Source: a virus. From it: DNA of 64,000 bases. Below are positions 3,189 to 63,234 of the stretch, piece by piece (positions within the stretch are counted from its first letter, which is position 1; every line of letters starts with the position of its first letter). The stretch lies in the IMG/VR virus record IMGVR_UViG_3300050505_000370. One strand, written 5' to 3'. The translations under genes and the position numbers were made by a program. The notes under the pieces are model-generated. The model saw only the letters and a list, made by a program, of their open reading frames with translations. It was not told the origin of the DNA and ran no database searches.

Positions 3189-3256
3189 AAGGCCTCAGAA
3201 GGGCCTCTATTAATAAAGGATACAACCTTAGCCCTTTGGGACTAATAAGGAGAGTT

Positions 3257-3511
3257 ATGGCAGAACTAAGCCCCCTACAGCAGAAACAACTCGAAGAGTA
3301 TTTCACCTATCACCCTCCAACCTCTGACCAACTCCCTCGCTATGAAGCTATTAGAGGGGCTGCAAAGGAGTTTGCCCACGTCCTCCTAGCCAATACTCCT
3401 CCTTCTGCTGACCAATCAGCTTCTTTAAGGCTCTTAAGGGAAGCGGTTATGACTGCCAACGCTTCTATTGCTTTGGAGGGATGTGAGGCGGTTAATCCCC
3501 CAAGGAGATAG
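3257..3511 (+). CDS. conserved small phage protein; candidate N4 gp49 / Sf6 gp66-type (Acb2-like) protein
   Basis: Start moved to ATG 3257 (AAGGAGAG upstream). Motif string FTYHPP..Q.PRYEAIRGAAKEFA..L....PPS...S.SL..LREAVM.ANASIAL matches a widespread phage family as I remember it. Confidence 0.45.
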   Translation: MAELSPLQQKQLEEYFTYHPPTSDQLPRYEAIRGAAKEFAHVLLANTPPSADQSASLRLLREAVMTANASIALEGCEAVNPPRR

Positions 3512-42740: not shown

Positions 42741-42928
42741 ATCTTCCTCACTTTCACCTTAGTTATCTGATTATATCCAAACATCTGAAGAAGCTCCTTT
42801 GCCCTCTCCTCCTTCTCTCGCCTGTAGACAGGGTTGGAAGAAGGGAAGTGAGATATATGTTCTCCTTCTTCTATCTCAAACTCTAACTTGACTAGATGCT
42901 TTCTTACCTTGCCGGTGGAGTCAATCAT
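42737..42928 (-). CDS. hypothetical protein (63 aa)
   Basis: ATGA overlaps on both sides. Confidence 0.5.
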   Translation of the reverse strand: MIDSTGKVRKHLVKLEFEIEEGEHISHFPSSNPVYRREKEERAKELLQMFGYNQITKVKVRKI

Positions 42929-45900
42929 AAGCTAACCTCCTTCATCTCGGCTAGGTTGTGGCCGACTTTTATATCCACCTCGCAGTGGAAGCCCTCTGGC
43001 ATTGTCCAATTCACCAACACCTTACTCCTTCTCCTCATCACTGTCAACACCTTCTTCATCACCTCCTCCCACTCCTCTTCCCTCGGTTCAAATCTAAAAT
43101 CATCATGCACCATATTAACCAACCTAGCTTTATCCAATAAACCTGGGGTAGAGAGGTAAGGTTGGAGGCTCCCCCCTATCATAGAAAGGACTTCTCCCCC
43201 ATCTTCTAAGATCCTAAGGTTCTCCCTCATGTGGCAGAAGGCGTTAGCCGCCACAGGATAAGCCATAGCTTGTTGAGCTTGCTCCCCCTTCTTTATAGAA
43301 AGGACATTCCCCCACTTATCATACCTCGGCTCCCCTGCTGCCCAAAACCACCGACGAAAGCCAAAGGGGATGTCAATATAGTTTTGATTGTCTGCTAAGG
43401 CAATTATCTTATCCTGAAATTTGAATACCCTTGGGAAAAGCCTCCTCAGCAACTCATAAAGCTTCTTAACCTTCTTCTTCCCCTGTGCCTCAGCCTCAAC
43501 CTGCCACCTCGCCATTCCTGTCCTTAGGTCCACCTCCAAAGGATTACTCCTCTTCTTCCCCCACCCCTTCAACACCTCCTCCATCTTAGGATTAAAGTCC
43601 TCCTTATACCTCTCATAGCACCCCTCTTCCGACAGTCCAAACCCTATCCCAAGTATAGCATGTTTAGCTTGGTCATCTCTTAGACTCTTATAAGCTCCCT
43701 TAACCTCCTTCAACCACCCCCTAAGCTTCTCATCCTCCCACCCTATAGCCACATCTGCCTCAGGAAGACTGACCATGTGGGCAGTTACATAACTGTGGAT
43801 GTCAAGTCTAGCCAGCCTTATATAGTCTGGGTCTTCTGCTAAGAACCCCAACATAAGGGCATGGTAGCTCTTGTAGTCCAACTTAGTCAGAACATGCCCT
43901 TCCTTTGCCTCTATAGTCTCATTGAACTTAATGGCTAAGGTAGAGTGGACTGGCCCCTGTTGGATATTAGGGTCCCTGCTAGAGGTCTGCACAGTTGGGG
44001 GGCGGAAAGTGAAGGTTGTATGGACTCTACCGTCCTCCCCTGGCTTCCATCCCTTCTTCCCATTCTTCCCTCCCCCCAAGAAGGAGCCTTCCATCTTTGT
44101 TAGCTCCCTATACTCCACCATCAAACTATAAACTTTATCCCCTGTCTTAATAGCCAGCCCCTTCAACACCCCCTTCGAGGTAGAAAGGTCCTTCTCTTCA
44201 TCCTCAAAGTCATGAAGGTCAATCTTACTTCTACTTTCCTTCGCTATATTAATAGCTAACTTAGCAGCTATCTTCTCATGCTTCTTATATTTAATAAGGT
44301 CACTTACCTGTGGGGGACTATTGGGGTTAAAGGGGATGACTTTGCAATACCTTCTCACAGTCCTAAAGCCCCTCCCCTGACAAGCAGGGCATACCATGAA
44401 GACCCCATCACTCCCCTTTATCTCCCCATTCTGCCTACAAAATCCACAACTCCCTTGCTTAAACCCCACCACTCCCAACCCCGCCCCCTCAGCTACCTCT
44501 TCTAAGGGATTGGTAAAAAGTGTCTCCACCCCCACCCCCATCTTAGTCGCCGCCAAAATAAGCTGCACCTTTAAATCAGCAGGGACATTCTTATACCCCT
44601 CCTCTGGGTGGTATCTATTGAACTGACTAGATACCCTCTCCTTTAACTCCCCCTCTATCTCCCCCTTCCTAAGGTGGATGGCTTCCTTAAAGACCTCTTG
44701 CTTCTTTTGGTTAACAGGGTAGCCTCTATCTTGAGTCTTAATAAGGATAGGCTTTACCTTATAGACAAGTTCCTCATATCCCCTCCAAAGATCCCTATCC
44801 TTTAGCCTCTTAGGTAGGTGCTCCATTATCCTGAGGGGTGCATCTGTATCGGCTATGCCATAGAAGGCCAAACTTTGCCCTGAGAGATGTTTCCAAGGGA
44901 AGGGGAAGTTGAAGTAACTAGCTGTAGCTTGCAGCCCTATAGGGATGTCACTTTGGTAGTGGTGCATCATCCACATGGTATCATCGACCCTACCATTTAT
45001 AACAACCCCCGCTTTTTGGAGGATAGGGCGGTCAAAGTCCCAGAAGTTATGCCCTACTTTGGGGTTAGGTAAGGACATGATCTTCTTAAATATACTGATG
45101 AAAGGTTCCTCCCAAGGGAAGGCTATCCCCGAGGAGGGGGCTATGGAGAGTTGGACTTGCTTTATATACTCCCCATAGTCATCTATCTCATCCTCTTCCT
45201 TTCCTATACTTTCCTTCGTTTCTATATCTATAGAGACTAGGGTGAGGGGGTTTCCCTTTAGGTGCTGCCATAACCCTACCGCTGCTTCATAGGAAGGAGA
45301 GAGGATATACTTAAGGGACTTATCTTCCATAGGGTTCATTATGAACTCAGGGGAGGTTCCTTGAGCTATCCCAAAAGCTTTTAGGTAGTCAAAGAGAAGA
45401 ATCCCCATTAGATGTGCGTTTCCCCTTCTGATGTAGGAGGGGTGGAAGGTTGGGACAACGAGAGTAGAGGGATAACGAGAAGAAGCAAAGACATACCCTC
45501 TAACCATGTTAATATTGAGATTATGACCCTCAAGTCCGGTGAGGTGCTTAAAAGGAACAGCACCAAGAGCAAGAATAACCTTAGGCTTGAACTTATTGAC
45601 AACCCTATCGAAATGGACTTTGCAGTGGTTAACCGCTTCATATTCCCACCCCATCCCTAGCAAGTGGTCCTGAGGGGGACGACACATGCATAGGTTGTTA
45701 AAGGTTAGTTGACCCCTAGTGTGTTTTGCCTTCTCCCTTATTACCCTATGGAGGATACTCCCTGCTTGGGCAGAGGGGCGAAAGGGGAGGCCTTCGAGGA
45801 TTTCGTTGTAGCCAGGACTTTCCCCAGTGAGAAGAAGGGGGGTAGAGCCATTTCCCTCAGGTAGAATAAATCCCTCCCCTATATCCTCAAGGGGGCAGCC

Positions 45901-45936
45901 TTGACATTCTTTAGGCTTTTGAATGAATTGAGGCAT
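42925..45936 (-). CDS. polA: Fusion of family-4 UDG-like domain, 3'-5' exonuclease and family A DNA polymerase
   Basis: UDG: CQGCPL, GESPGYNE, HPSYIRR. Exonuclease: VSIDIETKE, GHNFWDFD, YGIADTD. Polymerase: DYKSYHALML (motif A), RDDQAKHAILGIGFG (motif B), VHDDF (motif C). CxxC...CxxC insert between exonuclease and polymerase. Confidence 0.9.
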   Translation of the reverse strand: MPQFIQKPKECQGCPLEDIGEGFILPEGNGSTPLLLTGESPGYNEILEGLPFRPSAQAGSILHRVIREKAKHTRGQLTFNNLCMCRPPQDHLLGMGWEYEAVNHCKVHFDRVVNKFKPKVILALGAVPFKHLTGLEGHNLNINMVRGYVFASSRYPSTLVVPTFHPSYIRRGNAHLMGILLFDYLKAFGIAQGTSPEFIMNPMEDKSLKYILSPSYEAAVGLWQHLKGNPLTLVSIDIETKESIGKEEDEIDDYGEYIKQVQLSIAPSSGIAFPWEEPFISIFKKIMSLPNPKVGHNFWDFDRPILQKAGVVINGRVDDTMWMMHHYQSDIPIGLQATASYFNFPFPWKHLSGQSLAFYGIADTDAPLRIMEHLPKRLKDRDLWRGYEELVYKVKPILIKTQDRGYPVNQKKQEVFKEAIHLRKGEIEGELKERVSSQFNRYHPEEGYKNVPADLKVQLILAATKMGVGVETLFTNPLEEVAEGAGLGVVGFKQGSCGFCRQNGEIKGSDGVFMVCPACQGRGFRTVRRYCKVIPFNPNSPPQVSDLIKYKKHEKIAAKLAINIAKESRSKIDLHDFEDEEKDLSTSKGVLKGLAIKTGDKVYSLMVEYRELTKMEGSFLGGGKNGKKGWKPGEDGRVHTTFTFRPPTVQTSSRDPNIQQGPVHSTLAIKFNETIEAKEGHVLTKLDYKSYHALMLGFLAEDPDYIRLARLDIHSYVTAHMVSLPEADVAIGWEDEKLRGWLKEVKGAYKSLRDDQAKHAILGIGFGLSEEGCYERYKEDFNPKMEEVLKGWGKKRSNPLEVDLRTGMARWQVEAEAQGKKKVKKLYELLRRLFPRVFKFQDKIIALADNQNYIDIPFGFRRWFWAAGEPRYDKWGNVLSIKKGEQAQQAMAYPVAANAFCHMRENLRILEDGGEVLSMIGGSLQPYLSTPGLLDKARLVNMVHDDFRFEPREEEWEEVMKKVLTVMRRRSKVLVNWTMPEGFHCEVDIKVGHNLAEMKEVSL

Positions 45937-46326: not shown

Positions 46327-46995
46327 TTATCCCCCTGAAATCTCAAACCCATATCCAGACCCCCTAATGGTAAACCCCTGCTTCCACTTCTCCCCCTTCT
46401 CCCCCTCCCCTCCCCCCTCCATCTCATACTTCTCCAACTCCTTCAGCGCCGCCTCCATCCCCTTCTTATCCCCCTCCATCACCCTTAACCTCTCATCTAT
46501 ACTCCCCACTTGTTGATCCACGATGATCTGGGCTAGGTTAAGCTCCCCCTTCCCCACATCCCCCTTCCACTTCACCTTCTTCCCCTTTGCTATAACTCTC
46601 TCCCTTAGCTTCTTCCCCTCATACTCCTGCTGCTCTATCTGCTCTAGAGTCCTCTTAATGCTTGACCTCACATGCCCCACCACATCCCCCACTTCCCTCA
46701 TAAAAGCATCGTTGAACAACTCAAGAAGGGTCCCCCTAACCTTCCTCTCAAACTCCCCTATCCCATCCATCCCCTCTTCATCATAGACCCTCCTCCTCTC
46801 TTCATCCTTCCCCACCACTCCATAGGCTATGGTGAGGGCTCTTATCTCCTCCCCATCCTCTTTCTCCCTATCAGGGTGGAGCTTCTTCACCTTCTCCCTA
46901 TAAGCCTTTTTTATCTCTGCTTGGGAAGCATCCTTAGCTACCCCGAGGGTAGAGTAGTGATCCTTCTTAGGCTTCTTTTGTCCTGTCATAGCCAC
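46327..46995 (-). CDS. J-domain (DnaJ-like) protein
   Basis: DHYSTLGVAKDASQAEIKKAYREKVKKLHPDRE with the HPD motif. Likely start ATG 46989, which overlaps the stop of small ORF 46986-47090. Confidence 0.8.
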   Translation of the reverse strand: MAMTGQKKPKKDHYSTLGVAKDASQAEIKKAYREKVKKLHPDREKEDGEEIRALTIAYGVVGKDEERRRVYDEEGMDGIGEFERKVRGTLLELFNDAFMREVGDVVGHVRSSIKRTLEQIEQQEYEGKKLRERVIAKGKKVKWKGDVGKGELNLAQIIVDQQVGSIDERLRVMEGDKKGMEAALKELEKYEMEGGGEGEKGEKWKQGFTIRGSGYGFEISGG

Positions 46996-47207: not shown

Positions 47208-47492
47208 TTAAGAGGGGACATAATAAGCCTCCACCTCTCTATAGTCCGGCCCACTATGCTGTAGGAAGATTCTATCATTCCAAACAATTAGCTTCCAATA
47301 TCTAAGAGCCGTAGGAAGCTCTATCTCAGTAACAAACCCCCCTCCACTGTCCCTAAGGATAACCTTTCTAGTTAGGTACTTAACGTCCTTCATCTCCCTC
47401 ATTTTCCTACGACAAACATAGCAATACTTCTCTATCTGCTCATTAGGCATAAGGGGAAGTCCACACTCACCACAGATTCTAATATCAGGCAT
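47208..47492 (-). CDS. zinc-ribbon protein (94 aa)
   Basis: CGEC ... CYVC; 8-nt overlap with the upstream gene. Confidence 0.55.
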   Translation of the reverse strand: MPDIRICGECGLPLMPNEQIEKYCYVCRRKMREMKDVKYLTRKVILRDSGGGFVTEIELPTALRYWKLIVWNDRIFLQHSGPDYREVEAYYVPS

Positions 47493-48459
47493 CTTCCCTC
47501 CCTTCCCTCCCTTTAACCTTCTTCAACCCCCTCAACCACTCCCTCTCCTTCTCCTCTTTAACCCCTGCATGAGCCCACCCATCCTTATCAATCCACTTCC
47601 CTATATTCCCCTCTATTATCTGCACCAAAAGGGGAGGGGGGATAGCGTCTAGTTCCCAACTATAAGGGCCATACTTCTCAATATATTTAGAAGCCCTACT
47701 ATCTGTTACCTTAGCAGGGTTAGGTGGAGGGTGGAGGATTTCCACTTGCTTCATGTTAAGGGCTACTCGGCTTATTCTAAGGGATTCCCCTGGTACCCAC
47801 CCCTTAACAGCATCCTCTCCTCCACAGCTTAAGAACATCTTCAACCTATCTCTCAAATCCCTAGTCATATCAATCCCGCTTGGATCGTGGTCCCCTAGGT
47901 GGAGAATCCTAACCTTTTGTCCCTTCCCTATATACTTCTTAAATCTCCTCCCTGCCCTCCACATCTCGCTCTGACTATTATACCCCCTACAAGCAAAGCT
48001 AGGAACATCCCACTTCCTACACACCCCCTCCACCACCCCCATCAAGGCATCCTTCTCAATCCAAACCTCCAACCTATAAGGTTGATAAGTGATAGCCCAC
48101 ATATCTATATGGTAAGCCTCTATAGCTTCATCGAGGGCAGAGATAGGCCCCTTATAATGCTTCATCTCTCTGAGGTTCCTAGTTCTATCCTCTATGGCAG
48201 ACCAGTCAACTAGCCCCGCTAATCTCGCGTCGCTTATGAGGTTGCCAAAGTTGTTGTAGCTCTTGATGGTGTTGGGGATTATGTCCTTACTCACCATCTG
48301 GTAGTAGAGTTGCCTAAGGGTAAGGACAAACCCCTGCCCTTGATACTCCTCTATAACCTCATTAGCTTTGGCTATGAGGAGGGCTGAGGTGGTGGTGAAG
48401 GATTTAGGGATGTAGGTTTCTTTTGGCACTACATCCCCTCCTTTACCTTCTTCAACCAA
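47485..48459 (-). CDS. Spo11 / topoisomerase VI subunit A-like protein (stand-alone, Mini-A type)
   Basis: 5Y-CAP-like LTLRQLYYQMV, Toprim Glu in EVWIEKDAL, DxD in LGDHDPSGIDM. The track start is TTG 48459. GTG 48429 has AAGGAGGGG upstream and overlaps the helicase stop. Confidence 0.6.
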   Translation of the reverse strand: MVEEGKGGDVVPKETYIPKSFTTTSALLIAKANEVIEEYQGQGFVLTLRQLYYQMVSKDIIPNTIKSYNNFGNLISDARLAGLVDWSAIEDRTRNLREMKHYKGPISALDEAIEAYHIDMWAITYQPYRLEVWIEKDALMGVVEGVCRKWDVPSFACRGYNSQSEMWRAGRRFKKYIGKGQKVRILHLGDHDPSGIDMTRDLRDRLKMFLSCGGEDAVKGWVPGESLRISRVALNMKQVEILHPPPNPAKVTDSRASKYIEKYGPYSWELDAIPPPLLVQIIEGNIGKWIDKDGWAHAGVKEEKEREWLRGLKKVKGREGREDA

Positions 48460-49934
48460 TTCAACACCTTTGGGTCTACCTTACATCTCTTCCCTAAGAT
48501 CCCCTCTGCCCCTACCAACCTCATCCCCTCCACACTTCTAGCCCTACTTAAAGCGACGTAGAGTTGATTAGGATTAGACATGAACCAGTTGCGGCAATCA
48601 ATCTGCACCTTATCAAGGGTCAACCCCTGGCTCTTGTAGGTGGTAACCGCATAGGCTACCCTTATAGGGCTATAAGTAACTGCCCCATATATCCACCTCT
48701 GTCTCTCATCGTCGTAGTAGGGTTCAAACCCATCAGGTAACTCCTCAGTGGCATCAGGTTTGTGCTTACTCTCATTGAACCTCGTAACAGGGGGGACACT
48801 AACTACCTCCCCATTCCTAGCCAACTTAACCATAAAGGTTTGGGTGAGGGGGTTGAAGTCTTGGATAGTCCCACAATCCCCATTGCTATATTCAAAGCCA
48901 ATCGACATCCCATCCACATACCCCAAAGACTTATTAACCAAGATCATCACATAAGCCCCTACCTTCACATTCAACTTATCTGGGATCTGCTTCCACTCCC
49001 CCAAAGCCTTCCCCTCTACCTTCTTCAAGGTAGAGATAGGCTTCCCCCCTATCCTCCCCAACCTAATAAGATTGTAGCTATCAACCTCCTCATTCTTTGC
49101 CATAATGGTGGTGCCGTCGAAGTTGGGGTCTAAGCCAGAGTTGAACTTCGCCCCCAAACCAACAAGCATTTTCTCCGCCTCCATCCCTCTCCCCATCCGG
49201 GCTAACTCCAAAGCTTCCACAAAGGGCTTACTCTCCTGCCTCCACACATGGGTAAGAAAGGTAGTCCCCCCTTCTTCCTCAAACCTATCCCAACATTCCC
49301 CCTCAAAGGCCCACTTTGCTTTCTTCTCCTTGGTGGAGATAGGCCCTAACTGGCCGAAGTCCCCCGTTAGGATCAACCCTATAGGCCTCTTGGTACTTTC
49401 CCTCGCATTAACCTGCTCTATAGCATTAACAAAGACATCAAGGGCTTCCCCCTCTAACATGGAAGCCTCATCAAGGATAAGGAACCTATAGGATTTGGCT
49501 AGTCTAGCAAGGGTGGCTTGAACCTTCCCCTCTATAAACTTATCAACTAGAGAGGCGGTGTCGAAATACTTAAAGGTGCTATTGATGGTGGTGGTGCCGA
49601 GGTTAACAGCGGCTATCCCTGTTGTGGCACAGAGAAGGCCAAAGGAAGGGTCCTTCTCTATCTGCTGCTTGATAAGGGTGGTCTTTCCTGTCCCTGCCTT
49701 ACCTGTGATAAAGCGGAAGAGAAGGCCCTCCTCGTCGTCCTCGAAGGGGTCTGGGTTGGTTTTGATAGGGTTGATGGGAGAAGATTCATAGATAGAGAAG
49801 ACCTTTCCCTCTTCTACAAAGGGGAGATTATCTACTCCATCGTTTAAGGCTTCTTGTGGTTGGGAGGTTTCTTGCTCTGGGGGAAGGTCTGTATCTGCTA
49901 AGGCCTCCTCCCATGTCTTAAACTCATTTGCCAT
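48429..49934 (-). CDS. SF1B helicase (Pif1/RecD/Dda-like)
   Basis: GKAGTGKTT (motif I), LILDEASML (II), LTGDFGQLGP (III), YAVTTYKSQGLT (V), YVALSRARS (VI). Confidence 0.85.
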   Translation of the reverse strand: MANEFKTWEEALADTDLPPEQETSQPQEALNDGVDNLPFVEEGKVFSIYESSPINPIKTNPDPFEDDEEGLLFRFITGKAGTGKTTLIKQQIEKDPSFGLLCATTGIAAVNLGTTTINSTFKYFDTASLVDKFIEGKVQATLARLAKSYRFLILDEASMLEGEALDVFVNAIEQVNARESTKRPIGLILTGDFGQLGPISTKEKKAKWAFEGECWDRFEEEGGTTFLTHVWRQESKPFVEALELARMGRGMEAEKMLVGLGAKFNSGLDPNFDGTTIMAKNEEVDSYNLIRLGRIGGKPISTLKKVEGKALGEWKQIPDKLNVKVGAYVMILVNKSLGYVDGMSIGFEYSNGDCGTIQDFNPLTQTFMVKLARNGEVVSVPPVTRFNESKHKPDATEELPDGFEPYYDDERQRWIYGAVTYSPIRVAYAVTTYKSQGLTLDKVQIDCRNWFMSNPNQLYVALSRARSVEGMRLVGAEGILGKRCKVDPKVLNWLKKVKEGM

Positions 49935-50011: not shown

Positions 50012-50074
50012 AGGAAACCCTATTAGTAGAAGCTTCCCCCGTTCTGCATTAAGGGTAAACTAATAGGGTTTCCT
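50012..50074 (-). terminator. Long hairpin (15-bp perfect stem, 33-nt loop), terminator or processing site
   Basis: Arms AGGAAACCCTATTAG (50012-50026) / CTAATAGGGTTTCCT (50060-50074). On the - strand it is followed by TCTATCCTTTT. Lies between ORF 50102-50446 and the helicase gene. Confidence 0.5.
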
Positions 50075-57646: not shown

Positions 57647-58027
57647 CTAACCTTCTCCCCAATCCTCTATCTCCCTCTCCATCTCCTCCTCCTTAGTCCT
57701 TAGAATAATCTCCACCGCCTCCGTCCTAGCCCAATCATTAACCTTCTCCCTCCCCTTCATAATAGCCCTATATAGCCGCCACTGAAGGGGGGTGAAGGTG
57801 GTGAAGGCTTCCCCACTTTGCACCCTATTGTAGAGATAAAAGGTATCCCTATCGGCCTTCTCCTCTATTTCCTCCCGCACTTCCTCTAAAAGGGTGGGTA
57901 AGTCTTCGTCTAGGGCGATTAGCTCTGGATTGTCTACGCAATTGTCTTTGTCCATCTCTCCCCTTTCCCCCTTCCTACTTCTTAGGAGGTCCCCCTTTCT
58001 TAAAATCCAACACCTTGGGGTAGTCAT
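57647..58027 (-). CDS. hypothetical acidic protein (126 aa)
   Basis: ORF in the array; overlaps the upstream gene's end by 53 nt. Confidence 0.45.
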   Translation of the reverse strand: MTTPRCWILRKGDLLRSRKGERGEMDKDNCVDNPELIALDEDLPTLLEEVREEIEEKADRDTFYLYNRVQSGEAFTTFTPLQWRLYRAIMKGREKVNDWARTEAVEIILRTKEEEMEREIEDWGEG

Positions 58028-62620: not shown

Positions 62621-62857
62621 TTAGACATCTCCCCACCTCCCTTTTACCCTCTCTAGAAGTATATCCAATTGCTCCCCATTCACCTCATAGACTTTTAGAT
62701 TCTTTGTGGGGGCTATAATCCACCCTTCAGAAGGGAACATAGATATATCTATATTTCCCCCAAGAGTAGCTTGAAGGAGGGGACATCCCACCTTCATAAG
62801 GGATATGTCAAAGGCTATCTTCCCCTTCCCTCTCCTCTTTATATCTTTGTTAGGCAT
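62621..62857 (-). CDS. hypothetical protein (78 aa)
   Basis: Overlapping array. Confidence 0.5.
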   Translation of the reverse strand: MPNKDIKRRGKGKIAFDISLMKVGCPLLQATLGGNIDISMFPSEGWIIAPTKNLKVYEVNGEQLDILLERVKGRWGDV

Positions 62858-63234
62858 TCTGGTCCTATCCCCCTTTTTATAGACTCTGGAACTGTTAGGA
62901 GCCTATTACATCTCCAACATCTCCCACTTTTAAGGGCATAAGCCTTCCCACATTCCTCCTTAGAGGAGGCTAATCTTGCTAAGGCTCGGATAATCCCATT
63001 TATCCTAATCCCTTGGTTAGAGGTAGTCCAACTTCTCCAGAAGATAATCCCTCCATCTGAAGTGATATGCCCAAAGTAGGTGTAGTCCCCCTCATTGTTA
63101 GGTCCTGAGAGATACCCCACTATCTTACATTCCTTAACGGTATTCTTAAACCCCATCTTAACCCTTATGGTCCGATGCTCCCCAGAGGGGTAGACAATGG
63201 TGTAGGTACCACAGGAGAGGTTTGATAGGTTCAT
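62839..63234 (-). CDS. DUF6011-type protein
   Basis: C-terminal GRCWRCNRLLTVPESIKRGIGPEC motif. Confidence 0.6.
   Translation of the reverse strand: MNLSNLSCGTYTIVYPSGEHRTIRVKMGFKNTVKECKIVGYLSGPNNEGDYTYFGHITSDGGIIFWRSWTTSNQGIRINGIIRALARLASSKEECGKAYALKSGRCWRCNRLLTVPESIKRGIGPECLTKI

Follow-up and report, generated by a model that had tools for sequence, protein, structure and literature searches.

A probable stand-alone Mini-A gene in the replication operon of an uncultivated tailed phage

The three-gene locus and the identity of its central product

The DNA analysed here, a stretch of 64,000 nucleotides from the IMG/VR virus record IMGVR_UViG_3300050505_000370 (the window, in what follows), comes from an uncultivated tailed phage and carries phage structural genes together with replication genes. 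On its minus strand, three closely packed open reading frames (ORFs) code for a Pif1/Dda-like SF1B helicase, for what is very probably a Mini-A protein, that is, a stand-alone relative of the A subunit of DNA topoisomerase VI (Topo VI), and for a small zinc-ribbon (Zn-ribbon) protein (Table 1). A first-pass annotation, made from the sequence alone, had read these genes as a single coupled module for breaking and unwinding DNA. All three ORFs appear in our ORF list at the coordinates that it had given, and the motifs that it had quoted for the middle protein (LRQLYYQ, EVWIEKDAL and GDHDPSG) were all found there.

Table 1 Features of the Mini-A locus and of the operon downstream of it
Feature	Position	Strand	Description
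Pif1/Dda-like SF1B helicase gene	48429-49934	minus	501 aa
Mini-A gene (Topo VI A-like, 5Y-CAP + Toprim)	47485-48429	minus	314 aa, GTG start at 48429
LRQLYYQ = R39-x-x-Y42-Y43, 5Y-CAP domain	48298-48318	minus	predicted catalytic tyrosine Y43
EVWIEKDAL, Toprim glutamate E125	48043-48069	minus	invariant in alignments A1 and A4
GDHDPSG, Toprim DxDxxG metal-binding motif, D180/D182/G185	47875-47895	minus	invariant in A1 and A4
PPPNPAK then xTDSR, past the Toprim core	47710-47730	minus	strongly conserved
SWELDAI, T2BI box, residues 257-263	47641-47661	minus	Mini-A-specific xWELDAL signature
Zn-ribbon ORF	47208-47492	minus	94 aa
J-domain (DnaJ) protein	46327-46995	minus	Pfam DnaJ, E 4.4e-16; downstream border of the variable slot
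UDG-domain/family A DNA polymerase fusion (UDG/PolA)	42925-45936	minus	1003 aa; phrog_17, E 3.7e-51; Pfam DNA_pol_A + UDG

The extent to which the helicase and Mini-A genes overlap depends on where the Mini-A gene begins. Its longest ORF (47485-48459, 324 amino acids) opens at a TTG codon at 48459. The GTG codon at 48429 is the better start, because an AAGGAGG sequence lies 7 nucleotides upstream of it, because the resulting N-terminus, (M)PKETY..., lines up with the MPK... start of 31 homologues, and because the database gene call (P0001) is likewise 314 amino acids long. With this start, the helicase and Mini-A genes are likely to share a single nucleotide (TAGTG). Thus, of the two overlaps described previously, the one of 8 nucleotides between the Mini-A gene and the Zn-ribbon ORF (ATGCCTGA) stands, whereas the one of 31 nucleotides between the helicase and Mini-A genes hinges on the TTG codon and probably does not. 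Furthermore, when longest-ORF calls are used, 18 of the 34 adjacent same-strand pairs in the minus-strand module overlap. Since overlaps are common to most pairs in the operon, they say little about functional coupling, and the end-to-start overlaps seen here reflect a compact layout shared by most genes in the module.

In the definition of Takahashi et al. (PMC7671362), Mini-A proteins are Topo VI A subunit homologues that viruses encode; they measure about 300 amino acids, are without the N-terminal B-binding part of the 5Y-CAP domain and are encoded without a nearby Bergerat-fold 'Mini-B'. These proteins keep the RxxY/F-Y motif, the Toprim glutamate and the DxDxxG motif, and carry a subfamily-specific xWELDAL signature (the 'T2BI' box) that separates them from Topo VI and Topo VIII. 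Every one of these features that we tested was found in the middle protein or around it: the size, an RxxYY motif, the Toprim glutamate and DxDxxG, a WELDA box, a phage genome setting with no GHKL protein in the window, homology to known members and a Top6A-like fold. The protein matches phrog_6247 ('DNA topoisomerase') over its full length with an E value of 3.2e-104, is related by tblastn (E 4e-21) to a coding sequence of an archaeal element annotated as 'Topo Mini-A' (BDI55143.1, LC711082.1), and is 44-50% identical to genes labelled 'DNA topoisomerase' in isolate phages of Salmonella, Pseudomonas and Xylella. Together, the motifs, the PHROG match, the fold matches and the annotated 'Topo Mini-A' homologue bear out the earlier identification of a stand-alone Top6A/Spo11-like protein, which is very probably a Mini-A.

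A truncated 5Y-CAP (winged-helix) domain carrying Tyr43 and a Toprim domain carrying E125 and D180/D182 make up this protein, which begins 38 residues ahead of the tyrosine motif. Conservation was assessed in an alignment of 32 close homologues (A1) and in a diverse alignment (A4) that adds relatives of 26-29% identity, including an archaeal Mini-A and plasmid copies from Rubrobacter, Streptomyces and Cupriavidus. R39, Y43, E125, D180, D182 and G185 are invariant in A4, whereas Y42 is variable (W/F/A), indicating that Y43 is the catalytic tyrosine. Past the Toprim core, P234-P236, N237, K240, D243 and R245 are invariant in A1, with K240 and D243 remaining invariant in A4, and the PPPNPAK segment pairs with 'LPTHPLKEQD' of the M. 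jannaschii Top6A structure 1d3y_A, in which 'TDGDPYG' pairs with GDHDPSG. A1 shows no variation in the T2BI box at W258, E259, L260, D261 and A262; the final residue of the box is I, not L. Overall, 64 columns are invariant across the 32 sequences of A1, at about 50% identity across unrelated phages.

An AlphaFold2 model of the protein (predicted local distance difference test score, pLDDT, 85.5) gave as its best Foldseek matches in the PDB the Topo VI A chains 9o8p_A, 9o7o_A and 1d3y, together with the MksG nuclease 8b7f_A, over about 300 columns. The Topo VI A matches have probabilities of 0.98-1.0 over 300-320 columns, with an E value of 2.5e-3 and template modelling (TM) scores of 0.3-0.4; these last values are modest, as one would expect of two domains with a differing relative orientation. 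Foldseek comparison with the viral models of BFVD was uninformative. At the level of sequence, the single protein had no significant match in Pfam, NCBIfam, PADLOC or PDB sequences, and a profile of the 32 close homologues had no match in the PDB. The A4 profile, run against 177,635 PDB sequences, placed the M. jannaschii Top6A (1d3y_A) first, with a non-significant E value of 0.3 over the segment from DxD to PxxK, and TP6A_N was the sole Pfam family to recur among the members of the Mini-A family (4 of 32, best E 0.044). It is on the motifs, on the PHROG match and on the homology to one annotated Mini-A that the family assignment mainly relies. The likeness to Topo VI A and Spo11 lies in the two-domain 5Y-CAP and Toprim fold, in the Tyr, Glu and DxD residues and in the aligned DxD-to-PxxK segment; unlike for these enzymes, no B subunit or ATPase accompanies the protein in the window, and the sequence similarity to them is below significance.

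The window was searched for such a partner. A Pfam scan of its 58 ORFs of at least 90 amino acids found no GHKL/HATPase or Topo VI-B domain at E <= 0.01, and a crude regular-expression search for a GHKL partner found none, in agreement with the earlier remark that no Topo VI-B or GHKL protein is visible in the window; these searches covered the window, and of the contig, roughly 69.7 kb long, about 5.7 kb falls outside it. The GHKL ATPase and transducer that mark a type IIB topoisomerase, whether as a B subunit or fused, were therefore not found in the window.

Distribution of Mini-A and its neighbours across loci

The Mini-A family was described in 2019, is represented in PHROGs and is named in RefSeq phage records, and the window copy is a divergent addition to it, its nearest database members being about 50-57% identical (57% at most). 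A word-indexed search returned more than 8000 homologues, the family comprises at least 6844 representatives (50% clustering, E <= 1e-3), and 594 of 600 among the matches listed in a pattern search of IMG/VR belong to it. Among isolate phages, 82 records carry a Mini-A gene, often labelled 'DNA topoisomerase' or 'DNA topoisomerase VI' in RefSeq. These include Chi-like Salmonella phages, the Xylella phages Sano and Salvo, PaMx25-like Pseudomonas phages, phages of Brevundimonas, Roseobacter, Cellulophaga and Microbacterium, and the Pseudanabaena phage Pam3, and the gene is present throughout whole groups (the Chi-like, Sano-like and PaMx25-like phages). With these the window protein shares its length of about 300 amino acids, the truncated 5Y-CAP and Toprim domains, the motifs, the phage genome without GHKL and the phrog_6247 match; it differs from other Mini-A proteins in the final I of the T2BI box, in its position directly after a Pif1-like helicase gene and in belonging to a lineage without a cultured relative.

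Homologues were also found on 49 PLSDB plasmids, of which 40 are from Streptomyces (several of these being linear), at 21-29% identity, which extends the family past a 'viruses only' picture. The four plasmid loci L095, L097, L098 and L099 differ from one another in context. A conserved partner on actinomycete plasmids was considered and rejected: an AAA ATPase and a helicase follow the Streptomyces copy in L095 and are not shared by the three other loci. A separate homologue, P0002 (415 amino acids, on a 3.5-kb ENA contig), has a doubled C-terminal half in which CRGY...GDHDPSG...SWELDAL occurs twice, either through internal duplication or as an assembly artefact.

To what extent Mini-A genes share neighbours was determined for 82 other Mini-A loci, 80 from IMG/VR and two from isolate phages, with flanks of up to 7 kb. 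The IMG/VR loci were retrieved with an alignment as the query; locus searches of IMG/VR with a single protein, be it Mini-A or the helicase, gave no relatives. A tblastn comparison of the window helicase and the Zn-ribbon protein with these flanks gave no relative of either at any of the 82 loci. When the genes within five positions of Mini-A were clustered for 72 loci, the largest family was present in 6 of the 72, at varying positions, and among 78 same-strand neighbours lying within 40 nucleotides of Mini-A no phmmer cluster had more than two members, the pairs coming from near-duplicate loci. The larger neighbours matched a mixture of Pfam families (SNF2 and other helicases, AAA_24, methylases, ParB, RusA, YqaJ, RNR, QueC, ThyX and UDG), none of them in more than 4 of 143 proteins. 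A helicase of any family lies within three genes of Mini-A at about 5-6 of 70 loci, with no PIF1 among the families listed. Furthermore, the isolates that encode a helicase of the window type (Microcystis myophages, rV5-like phages, Flavobacterium columnare phages and others) are for the most part not those that encode Mini-A.

Individual loci place Mini-A near genes of nucleotide metabolism or DNA modification. In the Chi-like Salmonella phage 118970_sal1 (L002) ThyX lies directly downstream of it; in L037 the ORF of 214 amino acids adjoining it downstream is, of all those surveyed, the sole one resembling the neighbours' single QueC match; and in Pam3 the aGPT-Pplase genes lie a few kb away. 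Across the loci, no consistent link to nucleotide or DNA-modification genes was found. The survey of about 80 loci therefore reveals no conserved neighbour, neither a candidate 'Mini-B' nor a helicase, a useful negative that supports the idea of Mini-A acting alone or with host proteins.

The replication operon and its variable slot

Within the window, the Mini-A gene lies in a minus-strand operon with the order orf384 - orf209 - ... - helicase - variable slot - DnaJ - UDG/PolA, the variable slot being occupied in this phage by the Mini-A gene, the Zn-ribbon ORF and an ORF of 52 amino acids. The UDG/PolA gene is the anchor of this replication module. It had no match at E <= 1e-20 among 50,697 isolate phage records, placing the phage in a lineage without cultured relatives, and it is 50-63% identical to its counterparts in five syntenic relatives (L083, L085, L087, L089 and L090). 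Relatives keep the UDG-PolA fusion, which in L087 is divided into two genes. DnaJ homologues stand just before PolA in L085 and L087, and the helicase relatives, at 45-60% identity, sit in clearly syntenic modules. For these five relatives flanks of 6-8 kb were available, and statements on the absence of Mini-A apply to that stretch.

This comparison revealed that the gene is inconstant among the relatives. In L087, the helicase gene is followed by a gene for 96 amino acids and then by Mini-A (53% identical), in the same slot as in the window, after which come unrelated genes. In L083, Mini-A (48%) lies about 5 kb off, on the far side of PolA, and the gene after the helicase is an HNH gene. 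The closest relative, L085 (helicase 59%, PolA 63%), has no Mini-A between helicase and PolA, and its slot is taken up by eleven other genes, ThyX and a Dam-like gene among them. L089 keeps the helicase and has no Mini-A within 8 kb on either side, and none was found in the 6-8 kb flanks of L090. In addition, HNH endonuclease genes lie in the helicase-to-PolA interval of both L083 (7297-7791) and L090 (9811-10137). Mobile or cargo genes seem to gather preferentially in this interval.

The two genes that adjoin Mini-A in the window differ in how widely they are shared. The helicase matches Pfam PIF1 (PF05970) with an E value of 1.2e-16 (61.5 bits, cut-off 25.9) and the Dda-like helicases of phrog_325 with an E value of 2.8e-58, so that its earlier description as a Pif1-like SF1B helicase holds. 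Its residues 1-70 form an acidic, low-complexity extension, and relatives of 45-60% identity align from about residue 72; the extension could be genuine or could stem from an over-long start call. The Zn-ribbon ORF has an N-terminal CxxC-13-CxxC zinc ribbon, for which the Pfam zinc-ribbon matches are sub-threshold (E 0.02-0.06). A search of 5.8 billion proteins found no homologue of it except itself, and it resembles none of the genes on either side of Mini-A in L087 or L083.

Upstream of the helicase gene, in the 167-nucleotide gap that separates it from orf114, lies a perfect 16-bp inverted repeat, AGGAAACCCTATTAGT, with arms at 50012-50027 and 50059-50074 and a 31-nucleotide spacer. It occurs once in the window, and an operator, an RNA hairpin and an attenuator are all conceivable functions for it. 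One gene upstream, on the minus strand at 50564-50535, is TTGACA-18-TATCAT, the best-scoring sigma-70-like site in this region. Promoter and terminator scans gave counts that were not above those of shuffled sequence.

Elsewhere in the window, a plus-strand ORF of 91 amino acids (3236-3511) matches Pfam Acb2_Tad1_hairpin (PF24729; E 3.9e-13, 49.8 bits, cut-off 27) and is a candidate anti-CBASS/anti-Thoeris cyclic-nucleotide sponge. On the minus strand, an ORF of 131 amino acids (62839-63234) has a C-terminal DUF6011 domain (E 5.4e-14), and one of 126 amino acids (57647-58027) has a weak, sub-threshold Aca2/YdiL-like match (E 0.007).

Possible roles of the Mini-A protein

The first-pass annotation had proposed that helicase, Mini-A and Zn-ribbon protein are wired together as a break-and-unwind machine for replication initiation, concatemer processing or attack on host DNA. 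The three genes are indeed contiguous, on one strand and with overlapping stops and starts, within a replication operon. Such a dedicated complex is nonetheless very unlikely given that the Zn-ribbon ORF is without a homologue, that relatives of its product or of the helicase are missing within 7 kb of Mini-A at all 82 other loci, that no tightly linked neighbour recurs, that about half of the module's gene pairs overlap anyway, and that the helicase type and Mini-A mostly mark different groups of isolates. Conservation of the trio in relatives had been set beforehand as a test, together with a survey of co-occurrence in related phages. Neither the 82 loci nor the five syntenic relatives keep the trio together, Mini-A being displaced beyond PolA in L083 and not found in the stretches examined of others, such as the interval of L085 in which helicase and PolA are both retained. 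The trio is therefore not a conserved three-gene machine, and in all likelihood the genes do not form a conserved module at all. The tight packing of Mini-A with the helicase and Zn-ribbon genes is a local accident of gene order, and Mini-A most likely serves as accessory cargo in a slot of the replication operon whose content varies.

Taking the locus as a whole, we consider it probable that Mini-A is a stand-alone accessory enzyme that cleaves and religates DNA and that has no obligate partners. Top6A and Spo11 act as homodimers with composite active sites and form 5'-phosphotyrosyl DNA intermediates. By analogy with these enzymes, a tentative mechanism can be outlined, which we hold to be possible rather than likely. 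Mini-A would form a Top6A-like homodimer with composite active sites, in which Tyr43 of one protomer, together with the E125/D180/D182-Mg2+ site of the other, would attack DNA, giving rise to a 5'-phosphotyrosyl DNA intermediate. Without an ATPase gate, the outcome might be ATP-independent nicking, or cleavage probably accompanied by religation. Its target would be replicating phage DNA, where it may relieve topological stress or may nick and process replication intermediates, acting solo or with host factors and not in an obligate complex with the helicase and the Zn-ribbon protein.

Several points weigh against this reading. The sequence-profile link to Top6A is weak (E 0.3), and the E value and TM scores of the Foldseek matches are modest. 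Topo VI A does not cleave DNA in the absence of its B subunit, so that activity of a stand-alone Mini-A is not guaranteed, and no biochemical activity of any Mini-A was reported in the literature that we found. Furthermore, the L087 copy occupies the same slot after the helicase, which makes a lineage-specific functional link possible. Such a pair could operate as a split analogue of relaxase-helicase rolling-circle initiators, with Mini-A nicking the DNA and staying attached to the 5' end through Tyr43 while a 5'-to-3' helicase unwinds and PolA extends the 3'-OH. Top6A-type enzymes join 5' phosphates and SF1B helicases travel 5'-to-3', which suits this scheme, as does the gene order, Mini-A being the immediate downstream neighbour of the helicase in the window and separated from it by a single gene in L087; a role as rolling-circle initiator has, moreover, been proposed for the Mini-A of archaeal skuldviruses (preprint 10.1101/2021.07.29.453957). 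The likeness to TraI and TrwC relaxase-helicases is a functional analogy only, in that a 5'-linking tyrosine enzyme is encoded beside a 5'-to-3' SF1B helicase: those proteins use the HUH fold and are fused in one conserved polypeptide, whereas Mini-A is a Toprim/CAP protein whose pairing with a helicase is not conserved. Given that most Mini-A loci have no helicase nearby, that in L085 and L089 the helicase is retained and the slot holds no Mini-A, and that no origin-like or nick-site repeat was identified, we regard a lineage-specific pair of this kind as improbable. The specific version in which the two proteins start rolling-circle (late) replication for UDG-PolA we consider decidedly improbable.

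Alternatively, Mini-A might be a nuclease-type weapon or selfish cargo that degrades host DNA, counters defence or hops like a homing endonuclease. Its position varies among syntenic relatives, HNH genes share its interval in L083 and L090, and the Top6A-like MksG and JetD are plain nucleases, MksG (8b7f_A) being the third-best fold match. These proteins show that a Top6A-like fold can occur outside a topoisomerase; in bacterial defence (MksBEFG/Wadjet) their partner is an SMC-like ATPase complex, whereas the Pfam scan of the window found no SMC or Mks genes, and Mini-A has no PADLOC match, lies in a phage replication operon and has an invariant tyrosine, which favours covalent catalysis over simple hydrolysis. 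The strong conservation of the family, unlike that of fast-evolving homing endonucleases, and its stable presence across groups of isolate phages also count against a weapon or selfish gene, which we judge quite unlikely. That the protein belongs to some other Toprim family (DnaG, OLD/Gabija, RecR or JetD), its Top6A-like motifs being coincidental, is extremely improbable. Such a reading could draw on the lack of a significant Pfam, NCBIfam or PDB sequence match and on the T7 primase Toprim domain at Foldseek rank 5. That domain aligns over 121 columns, whereas the Topo VI A matches extend over about 300; the top PDB profile match is Top6A; the N-terminal domain has the invariant RxxYY, and TP6A_N is the one recurrent Pfam match; and PADLOC models for OLD, Gabija and Wadjet gave no match at E <= 1. 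A DnaG, OLD or JetD identity was accordingly ruled out by the motifs, the Topo VI A fold match over about 300 columns and the lack of any family-model match. The earlier annotation had named assignment to DnaG or OLD as the result that would overturn it, and motifs, fold and profiles alike make no such assignment.

A stand-alone accessory Mini-A thus stays the probable reading of the locus, and what is still of interest is what Mini-A proteins do in general. No role for it was reported in the literature that we found. If the pairing with the helicase held true, a split initiator would be the first function of a Mini-A and a Toprim/CAP-based alternative to HUH initiators. Beyond this phage, Mini-A constitutes a very large family with the catalytic apparatus of Spo11 and Topo VI A, which spans Chi-like, Sano-like and PaMx25-like phages as well as actinomycete plasmids.

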